A stretch of 64,000 bases of DNA from Escherichia phage mistaenkt. A model generated the notes under the pieces. It saw only the letters and a program-made list of their open reading frames with translations. It was not told the origin of the DNA and made no database searches. Of this stretch, positions 51,313 through 51,432 are shown piece by piece. Position 1 is the first letter of the stretch. Each line of letters begins with the position of its first letter. The position numbers and the translations under genes are program-made. Location: the sequence record MN850587.1; one strand, written 5' to 3'.

Positions 51313-51432
51313 TGGCAGTCAAGGTAGGAGTCGAACCTACTTACTCTCGAAGGTAGCTAACCTTCAGCAACTTTCCGACTTTCGTACATCTGTTAACATG
51401 TATTCAGATGGCTTACTAGTGTTGTCTTGACC
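51313..51432 (-). ncRNA. 120-nt tRNA-like gene: canonical acceptor stem, T-arm and CCA but non-canonical, enlarged internal region
   Basis: Acceptor GGTCAAG/CTTGACT, perfect T-arm GTAGG-TTCGACT-CCTAC, CCA; internal CATCTG-12 nt-CAGATG hairpin and GAAGGT-TAGCT-ACCTTC hairpin; no standard 7-nt anticodon loop found. Confidence 0.45.

Follow-up and report, generated by a model that had tools for sequence, protein, structure and literature searches.

The tRNA region of phage T4 encodes two stable small RNAs, RNA C (species 1; 139 nucleotides [nt]) and RNA D (species 2; 119 nt), whose function is still not known (PMC3014915, PMC9697503). Transfer-messenger RNA (tmRNA) also exists in two-piece forms, in which the tRNA-like and mRNA-like parts are separate molecules, and mycobacteriophage DS6A has a tRNA-like-only form of tmRNA that lacks a coding sequence (PMC11915505). 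The Y RNAs of bacteria and phages lie ≤4 kb from Ro60, on the same strand, and contain tRNA-like modules; YrlA of Mycobacterium smegmatis is cut by RNase P and receives CCA (PMC4201824). Here, we describe an element of 120 nt in Escherichia phage mistaenkt (sequence record MN850587.1), located within a tRNA island in the 64,000-nt stretch that we analyzed (the window). Its sequence predicts a tRNA-shaped small RNA. The reading that we favor, with a probability of about 0.4, is that this RNA is the tRNA-like module of a split, phage tmRNA-like cassette.

Re-reading the sequence, we found every feature that a preliminary description of the interval had listed, each in its place on the minus strand (Table 1). 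From position 51432 inward, the element begins GGUCAAG A CAAC ACACUAGUAAGC CAUCUG(AAUACAUGUUAA)CAGAUG UACGAAAGUCGGAAA GUUG CU and continues GAAGGU(UAGCU)ACCUUC GAGAGUAA GUAGG(UUCGACU)CCUAC CUUGACU G CCA. The T arm (a 5-bp stem with a UUCRANY loop), the discriminator G73, and the encoded CCA are canonical, as described. The acceptor stem had been called perfect; all 7 pairs form, but only 6 are Watson-Crick pairs, the other being the wobble G1·U72. Two 6-bp hairpins stand in the interior instead of D and anticodon arms. The first belongs to a 58-nt arm (arm I) at the D-arm position, and the second, with its 5-nt loop UAGCU, is at the anticodon position; the element has neither a D arm carrying G18G19 nor a 5-bp anticodon stem with a 7-nt loop. 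The linkers of arm I may contain AGUA/GAA motifs of the loop-E type. With type II tRNAs and tRNA-Sec the element shares the acceptor stem, the T arm, CCA, and an extra hairpin before the T arm, and G73 is found in tRNA-Ser and tRNA-Sec as well. It is, however, ~25 to 30 nt longer than any type II tRNA.

The region around the element is 98.8% identical to that of Escherichia phage SUSP2 and 99.6% identical to that of phiSUSP1 (Ounavirinae, Suspvirus type). The 13 loci with full-length homologs are all from Suspvirus or Mooglevirus. We aligned the 9 distinct sequences, which differ by up to ~16% (mean column identity, 94%). In a structure comprising the acceptor stem, the CAAC/GUUG helix, hairpin 1, hairpin 2, and the T arm, 96.6% of cells were paired, compared to ~45% when the partner was slid. 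Both members changed at four pairs, two per hairpin (C-G to or from U-A and G-C to or from C-G in hairpin 1; U-A to or from G-C and A-U to or from G-C in hairpin 2), and hairpin 2 of KPS64 is one pair shorter on both strands. Apart from a change of A70 to G, which turns the U-A pair at 3:70 into U·G in Sf19 and pEC-M719, no variation was found in the acceptor stem, the T-arm stem, G73, CCA, or the CAAC/GUUG pairs, and the T loop has a single substitution (G to A, in locus L017). The linkers ACAACACNAGUAAG, ACGAAAGUCGGANAGUUGC, and AGUAA are nearly invariant, while the hairpin stems and loops vary more. The loop of hairpin 2 is UAGCU or UAGCG in all sequences, whereas that of hairpin 1 (12 to 13 nt) varies (ACAUG versus ACGCG). 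The palindrome noted earlier in the hairpin 1 loop, TGTTAACA, is present in the window but is not kept in Mooglevirus, which has GCGUUAAGAG instead; we dropped it as a functional site and regard it as incidental. On its own, the sequence folds with an unremarkable energy (z = −1.15), and the support for the element therefore comes from comparative data, not from thermodynamics. We consider this evidence for selection on the RNA structure to be good but not overwhelming, given the small number of independent substitutions.

We next consider whether the element is simply a tRNA. The ends of the element do not arise readily by chance: a scan for a 5-bp T stem, a TTCRA loop, a 7-bp acceptor stem, and NCCA gave no match in 40 shuffled 64-kb windows and, in the real window, returned the tRNAs and the element and nothing else. 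ARAGORN called no tRNA over the element, Rfam matched no family to positions 51313 to 51432, RF00005 included, at the gathering score or at an E value of ≤10, and the tRNA and tRNA-Sec models give it no score. A covariance model built from our alignment matched, elsewhere, only true tRNAs. In the resulting alignments, the 58-nt arm occupies the D-arm position, hairpin 2 the anticodon-arm position, and the 8-nt GAGAGUAA the variable-loop position. The predicted topology is thus a cloverleaf in which the D-side arm is expanded and the "anticodon" loop has 5 nt. The best match was to tRNA-Met, but its 35 bits reflect generic tRNA signal. In REP8, the phage tRNA-Tyr has exactly the T arm of the element. 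We rejected the element as a duplicate of tRNA-Tyr or tRNA-Met; a generic score of this kind does not name the parent tRNA.

Because a 5-nt loop sits at the anticodon position, the element is predicted to be incapable of decoding. One proposal of the preliminary description, a tRNA carrying an insertion, holds in the evolutionary or topological sense, as the alignments to tRNAs indicate, but fails for a decoding tRNA. An intron or insertion that is removed or tolerated in a 21st tRNA species would be compatible with the canonical ends and T arm, with the cloverleaf topology, and with a CAU in the hairpin 1 loop of the window. That possibility is effectively refuted by the lack of any tRNA model score, by the length of the anticodon-position loop in all 9 variants, by the unconserved hairpin 1 loop, by the missing G18G19 arm, and by 45 extra nucleotides with no group I intron feature. 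To our knowledge, group I is the only intron type in bacterial or phage tRNA genes. The accompanying statement that all 20 amino acids are already served in the window is only roughly true (ARAGORN finds 24 tRNAs for 17 amino acids). The other candidates proposed, namely, a small tRNA-like noncoding RNA, a tRNA mimic, or a processing substrate, fit an RNA with conserved, covarying hairpins, tRNA ends, and no usable anticodon loop; the checks suggested with them, against standard tRNA models and for covariation in relatives, both came out in their favor. The element lies outside the tRNA, tmRNA, and YrlA families as their models define them and is tRNA-like at least at its ends. We conclude from these comparisons that a genuine and conserved small RNA is encoded here, one that has the shape of a tRNA but does not decode.

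The closest positional analogues of this predicted RNA are T4 RNA D and RNA C. In T4, tRNA-Arg is followed after 1 nt by rnaD and then by rnaC; in the window, tRNA-Arg(UCU) is followed after 7 nt by the element. The T4 genes lie in the tRNA region on the strand of tRNA-Arg, which there also has the anticodon UCU. CCA is the 3′ end of RNA D, and a canonical T arm is present in RNA C. By analogy, the element has the placement of the RNA C/D class, that of an RNA gene of ~120 to 140 nt after tRNA-Arg. We detected no homology to rnaD or rnaC: local alignment scores were within the shuffle distribution, and the covariance model did not match. Unlike the element, RNA D shows no obvious acceptor stem of 7 bp. 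By eye, it also has no evident tag-like frame, no systematic search having been made. In the T4 locus (L092, 4909 to 5248, minus strand), the 3′ AGAAACG of RNA D is complementary to a CGUUUC that follows the T arm of RNA C, and RNA C contains GAUUCGAGG, which resembles GGAUUCGACGG of the tmRNA D-loop region. These are hints that RNA D and RNA C might cofold into a tRNA-like unit.

The evidence that most constrains the function of the element lies beyond the preliminary description. It consists of an upstream structured RNA with a tmRNA-type tag frame (the tag RNA), of long tRNA-like domains in other phages, and of a Ro60-like gene with a Y-RNA-like module. The element is predicted to share one promoter-to-tRNA unit with the tag RNA, in the order promoter, tag RNA, tRNA-Arg(UCU), and element; no terminator-like site was found between the promoter (51777 to 51749) and the element. 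Promoter and tag RNA together span 51520 to 51777 on the minus strand. A permissive Rfam scan of positions 51100 to 51800 gave two weak tmRNA matches at 51567 to 51782 (20.2 and 12.1 bits versus a threshold of 47), covering AAAAUAAAU and the tag frame, which encodes ANDNVFLAVA*. Scores in five unrelated loci were weak but consistent (about 10 to 23 bits versus the same threshold), and ARAGORN found no tmRNA in any locus. The tag of Escherichia coli tmRNA is ANDENYALAA, and a tag-RNA profile aligns to E. coli ssrA over the tag only, in register.

Using blastn, we found the ~125- to 160-nt core of the tag RNA in unrelated phages, including Jedunavirus, Ackermannviridae, Roufvirus, and G7C-like podoviruses. 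The tag RNA is present in 618 of 50,697 GenBank phage records, nearly always unannotated, and in 338 of 5,426 complete E. coli genomes, where it belongs to prophages and phage-plasmids and is distinct from the host ssrA. In a lambdoid prophage, it lies between the genes for the Q antiterminator and the holin, in an unannotated gap of 1 kb. Our set comprises 92 loci, 76 of them from IMG/VR; the pattern AAATGCAAAYGAN9CTGGCAGT yielded 0 IMG/VR loci, and a second pattern recovered loci. The tag frame has 19 DNA variants, of which 17 fit AN[D/E]xx[F/Y]LAVA*; ANSDQYLAVA* and AKDDQFLAVA* are exceptions, each from a single locus. The pattern fits 85 of the 87 tag-bearing loci, the frame having not been extracted from the other 5. 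Variation is greatest at third codon positions (7 of 10, versus 3 of 10 and 4 of 10 at the others), all three stop codons are used, and the frame lacks a start codon. The alternative frames are either interrupted by stops or variable at second positions. We rejected an ordinary small open reading frame (ORF) beginning at an overlapping AUG, since its variation falls mostly at second positions and some lineages have CUG or GUG in place of the AUG.

The tag-RNA structure was 98.4% paired among 28 representatives, and 9 of 23 pairs covary, including 3 of the 4 pseudoknot pairs. The stop codon lies in the loop of a covarying hairpin, and the H-type pseudoknot 3′ of the tag covaries in both stems; 5′ of the tag, a pseudoknot-like pairing was recognized by visual inspection alone. 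The tag RNA, and not the element, thus carries the hallmarks of a tmRNA message: a start-less frame, an alanine resume codon, a hydrophobic, Ala-rich C terminus, and a stop codon in a hairpin. We conclude that the tag RNA is a predicted translated, tmRNA-like message module and not a canonical tmRNA gene. Our searches of the open-access literature turned up no earlier account of the tag RNA or its tag peptides, the element, a tmRNA-like phage RNA, or a tRNA-like or Y RNA of Felix O1.

Two side observations concern the surroundings of the tag RNA. It recurs in unrelated lineages as a neighbor of tRNA-Arg(UCU), which is often accompanied by tRNA-Met(CAU) and tRNA-Ser(GCU) (L020, L009, L039, L043, L069, L075, L004, and the window). 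At five loci, from a lambdoid prophage and phage contigs of 46 to 49 kb (L036 [4687 to 6686], L030, L069, L075, and L093), two copies of a long helix (GGUAAGAGCAUU...variable insert...CAGUGCUCUUUCC) bracket it. Pairing is possible within or between the copies, and the inserts are highly variable, sometimes with a T-arm-like hairpin (L093). The bracketing helices could be RNase III sites or alternative folds.

In every lineage, the pseudoknots are followed by a long helix with a variable insert, equivalent to helix B of the window, and 2 to 5 nt further on by a tRNA or tRNA-like domain. This helix covaries in L020 (GGUAAUGGCAC/GUGCCAUUAUC). At 40 of the 92 loci, the tag RNA is directly followed by a "closure domain" of 83 to 231 nt (mostly ~100 to 130 nt), with the layout UGUGGUG, a terminal T-like hairpin, CACCACA, A or G, and finally CCA, CAA, or CAC. 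Canonical T arms are found in L089, L057, and L039, a D arm also in L057 and L039, and an ACCA end in L089 and L057; L093 ends in G-CCA, like the element. Elsewhere the T loop has decayed, and CCA has been lost at some loci. A further 13 loci have an 82-nt D-armless tRNA-like RNA (REP8 type), 13 have tRNA-Arg(UCU) plus the 120-nt element, 14 have tRNA-Arg only (Andreotti and SFPB type), and 12 have other arrangements. The REP8-type element (Escherichia phage REP8, locus L001, 1453 to 1534), present in many Felixounaviruses, carries the annotation "tRNA-OTHER." Its features are a UCU anticodon-type loop, an anticodon stem that covaries, C1-G72, G3·U70, A73, and CCA, a predicted combination of an alanine-type acceptor identity with an arginine anticodon, and its 3′ part resembles the 120-nt element. 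SKML-39 has a ~105-nt tRNA-like RNA adjoining the tag RNA. In Rouille (Kolesnikvirus), a 179-nt tRNA-like RNA lies beside the tag RNA with a promoter-like sequence between them, which speaks for two separate RNAs. Judged by these sequences, the tag RNA is accompanied in most lineages by a long, noncanonical tRNA-like RNA, of which the element is the Suspvirus/Mooglevirus representative.

The cassette that we favor would work as follows. RNase P (cutting at G51432) and the host 3′-end/CCA machinery would excise the element as a stable 120-nt RNA. Its tRNA ends would engage tRNA-binding factors, such as an aminoacyl-tRNA synthetase, EF-Tu, SmpB, or the ribosomal A site, and its invariant internal loops would bind a partner. 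Acting in trans, the element would provide the tag RNA with its missing acceptor function, and this two-piece phage analogue of tmRNA would retag the products of stalled ribosomes by using host SmpB. We tentatively prefer this trans mode, though at a low probability; a cis mode, in which the element would mainly process or stabilize the tag-RNA operon, is a weaker and somewhat doubtful alternative. More broadly, and again with little confidence, many enterobacterial phages might encode a form of the tmRNA gene that has separate message and tRNA halves, with the element as the acceptor piece in Suspvirus and Mooglevirus. The carriers would be Ounavirinae, Ackermannviridae, and Jedunavirus-like phages, together with lambdoid prophages and phage-plasmids. 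The message half would consist of a pseudoknot, a resume codon, the tag ANDxx(F/Y)LAVA, and further pseudoknots, and the tRNA half would follow or adjoin it. Host SmpB and EF-Tu would serve the rescue of stalled ribosomes, for example, at rare AGA codons, which would account for the constant company of tRNA-Arg(UCU). A C terminus of LAVA instead of ALAA would redirect or prevent ClpXP degradation.

The likeness to tmRNA is that of an anticodon-less RNA with an acceptor stem, T arm, and CCA beside a tmRNA-type tag frame with pseudoknots, and both two-piece tmRNAs and the DS6A form, noted above, offer precedents. The arrangement nevertheless differs from theirs. The acceptor stem of the element closes within one molecule, whereas that of a two-piece tmRNA forms between the pieces, and the tag is 5′ of the tRNA-like part here but inside the tRNA-like domain in tmRNA. 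Alanine identity, G3·U70/A73, defines tmRNA. The element instead has G1·U72, U3-A70, and G73, while the REP8-type element at the same site in Felixounavirus has G3·U70, A73, and CCA.

Together with this lack of alanine identity, several results weigh against a tmRNA-like cassette. The 14 loci with tRNA-Arg alone have no extra tRNA-like RNA, and the tag RNA therefore does not strictly need the element. The slot directly 3′ of the tag RNA, held by tRNA-like domains in other phages, is filled in the window by tRNA-Arg(UCU), with the element one gene further on. Acceptor identities differ among lineages. The element has no sequence homology that we could detect to closure domains from other lineages, and an AGUAAG/GAGUAAG motif that had seemed to be shared by the element, other tRNA-like domains, and T4 RNA C/D was rejected, as it occurs in 5 of 30 distinct domains versus 6.5 expected from shuffled sequences. 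A tblastn search with E. coli SmpB found no homolog in the window or in the 90-odd other loci fetched. Pairing of the element with the tag RNA, assessed with RNAduplex, was no better than that of shuffled elements (fraction, 0.57). Local duplexes join linker 2 to the last tag codons and linker 1 to positions 51199 to 51214, and these have no covariation support in Mooglevirus; the complementarity of 51199 to 51214 to linker 1 extends over 13 bp and is lost in Mooglevirus.

A different account of the same locus is that the element is a relic or passenger, either an ancestral tRNA or the tRNA-like domain that the tag RNA once had, pushed aside when tRNA-Arg inserted. It would now persist as a processing mark or as neutral cargo of a mobile cassette and would have no role as a free RNA. 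The element is an exact cassette of ~130 bp, since in close relatives without it, SFPB (Mooglevirus) and Andreotti (Felixounavirus), the CCA of tRNA-Arg runs directly into the downstream TAGTTAGCAG. Such presence and absence favors a passenger, as do an island with HNH endonuclease genes and several degenerate tRNA-like pieces, an 82-nt REP8-type element that looks recombinant (the tRNA-Arg anticodon arm joined to the 3′ part of the element), the T arm shared with tRNA-Tyr, and the decaying T loops and lost CCA ends of closure domains elsewhere. Against a relic stand the four compensatory pair changes and the compensatory 1-bp shortening described above, which point to selection on RNA structure, and the (near) invariance of the acceptor stem, T arm, G73, CCA, and both long linkers at this divergence. 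Nor would extra punctuation be needed, because tRNA-Arg upstream and the tRNA-like sequence downstream already provide processing sites. We consider a relic improbable.

Also unlikely, if slightly less so, is a tRNA mimic that acts on a protein, either as a second Y-like RNA of a phage Ro60-like protein or as a decoy or sponge for a host factor that recognizes the acceptor or T arm (for example, a defense toxin that attacks CCA ends or acceptor stems). A 471-amino-acid ORF (53785 to 55200, minus strand) that borders the tRNA island on its upstream side, 2.4 kb upstream of the element and on the same strand, matches Pfam DUF2828 and DUF7788. The top 11 Protein Data Bank matches of its AlphaFold model (pLDDT, 86.6) are all Ro60, Rsr, or Thermus phage Ro60 (E values, 2 × 10^-8 to 2 × 10^-6; TM scores, 0.5 to 0.65), and the modeled protein is a structural homolog of Ro60 (TROVE plus vWA). 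Some of its homologs in Yersinia and Vibrio phages are annotated "RNA-binding protein." The element thus has the placement of a Y RNA, within ~4 kb of the Ro60-like ORF, and resembles YrlA in its small size, its tRNA-like T arm, and its acceptor stem. Its linkers vary less than its stems, which suggests a sequence-specific binding site, and the invariant linker ACGAAAGUCGGAAAG resembles, without matching, the Ro60-binding motif GNCGAAN0-1G/GGUCCGA.

Other observations argue against a Y RNA. The exact GNCGAAN0-1G motif is absent from the element, which has only the near-matches ACGAAAG and GUCGGAAAG; a regular-expression scan matched it only at 53565 to 53572 and 52242 to 52249, both in T-arm contexts. 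Rfam YrlA (RF02553) does not match the element. Its parts are in normal tRNA order, whereas YrlA has the permuted order of T arm, closed acceptor stem-loop, and D arm, in an RNA whose two ends lie in the Ro60-binding stem. The Ro60-like gene occurs across Ounavirinae, but the element occurs in only some of them. A better Y-RNA candidate, kept in phages without the element, is the permuted module at ~52165 to 52310, with T arm GAAGG-UUCGAUU-CCUUC, D arm GUGU-AAUGGGA-GCAC, and a closing long-range helix, AGACCGUU/AACGGUCU. Rfam gave no YrlA match there at an E value of ≤10 and only a partial tRNA (31.3 bits), and this assignment therefore rests on architecture. A unit just upstream (~52300 to 52390, minus strand; CAGAAGACCAA...UUGGUCUGG) is a possible second Y-like RNA. 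For a decoy, no specific host target can be named from the sequence.

Table 1. Features of the element and its surroundings in the window
Feature	Position	Strand	Basis or remarks
120-nt tRNA-like RNA gene (whole element)	51313–51432	−	Sequence; full-length homologs at 13 loci (nhmmer)
Acceptor stem, 5′ strand GGUCAAG	51426–51432	−	Pairs with 51317–51323; 7 bp, G1·U72 invariant
Arm I (D-arm position)	51368–51424	−	CAAC/GUUG helix around linkers ACACUAGUAAG/ACGAAAGUCGGAAAG and hairpin 1
Hairpin 1, CAUCUG, 12-nt loop, CAGAUG	51387–51410	−	Compensatory changes
Hairpin 2, GAAGGU-UAGCU-ACCUUC, 5-nt loop (anticodon-arm position)	51349–51365	−	Compensatory changes
T arm, GUAGG-UUCGACU-CCUAC	51324–51340	−	Stem invariant
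Acceptor stem, 3′ strand CUUGACU, with discriminator G73 and encoded CCA	51313–51323	−	Sequence
tRNA-Arg(UCU)	51440–51516	−	7 nt upstream of element; ARAGORN; Rfam, 61.8 bits
Helix B, long hairpin between tag RNA and tRNA-Arg	51520–51583	−	17-bp helix read from sequence
Tag RNA core: 5′ helix, tag frame, stop-codon hairpin, H-type pseudoknot, second pseudoknot-like hairpin	51581–51743	−	
Tag frame, GCA AAC GAU AAU GUU UUU CUG GCA GUA GCU UAA	51666–51698	−	ANDNVFLAVA*
σ70-type promoter, TTGACA-N17-TATAGT	51749–51777	−	11 of 12 consensus matches; conserved in Ounavirinae
Degenerate tRNA-like sequence, CCA (Trp) anticodon loop	51088–51169	−	AUGGGAC...GUCCCAU-G-CCA; oversized D region, weak T stem
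Permuted tRNA-like module	~52165–52310	−	V hairpin, T arm, closed acceptor stem-loop, D arm (YrlA order)
tRNA-Tyr(GUA)	52984–53071	−	U·U mismatch in T stem; missed by ARAGORN
tRNA-Glu(UUC)	53463–53534	−	Rfam only; C·U mismatch in anticodon stem; missed by ARAGORN

The tRNA genes of the window are all on the minus strand, at about 47.4 to 53.6 kb. The degenerate tRNA-like sequence at 51088 to 51169 is the sole tRNA-Trp(CCA) candidate in the island and is below threshold in every tool. The genes for tRNA-Tyr(GUA) and tRNA-Glu(UUC), which ARAGORN misses, are recovered by Rfam or our covariance model. The ~140 nt downstream of the element (51170 to 51312, minus strand; UAGUUAGCAGAUUAC...) are conserved across Ounavirinae, including phages without the element, and contain several hairpins, such as CAUGUU-UUCC-AGAACAUG. 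Two small ORFs lie within the island: that at 50277 to 50729 (minus strand) encodes an HNH endonuclease (Pfam), and that at 52533 to 52961 (minus strand) has Cys/His motifs and no Pfam match. The two bring to mind the homing endonuclease SegB of the T4 tRNA region.

The element adds a well-supported case to a poorly understood class, the tRNA-shaped stable RNAs of phage tRNA operons; T4 RNA C and RNA D have been on record without a function for about 50 years. Its context outweighs the element itself, having led to an unannotated structured RNA with a tmRNA-type tag frame, in a gene layout that current tmRNA finders miss (ARAGORN and the Rfam thresholds). A tRNA island with a Ro60-like protein and a Y-RNA-like module suggests a phage toolkit for RNA and translation quality control. 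If the parts do cooperate, phages would carry their own variant of ribosome rescue and protein tagging.

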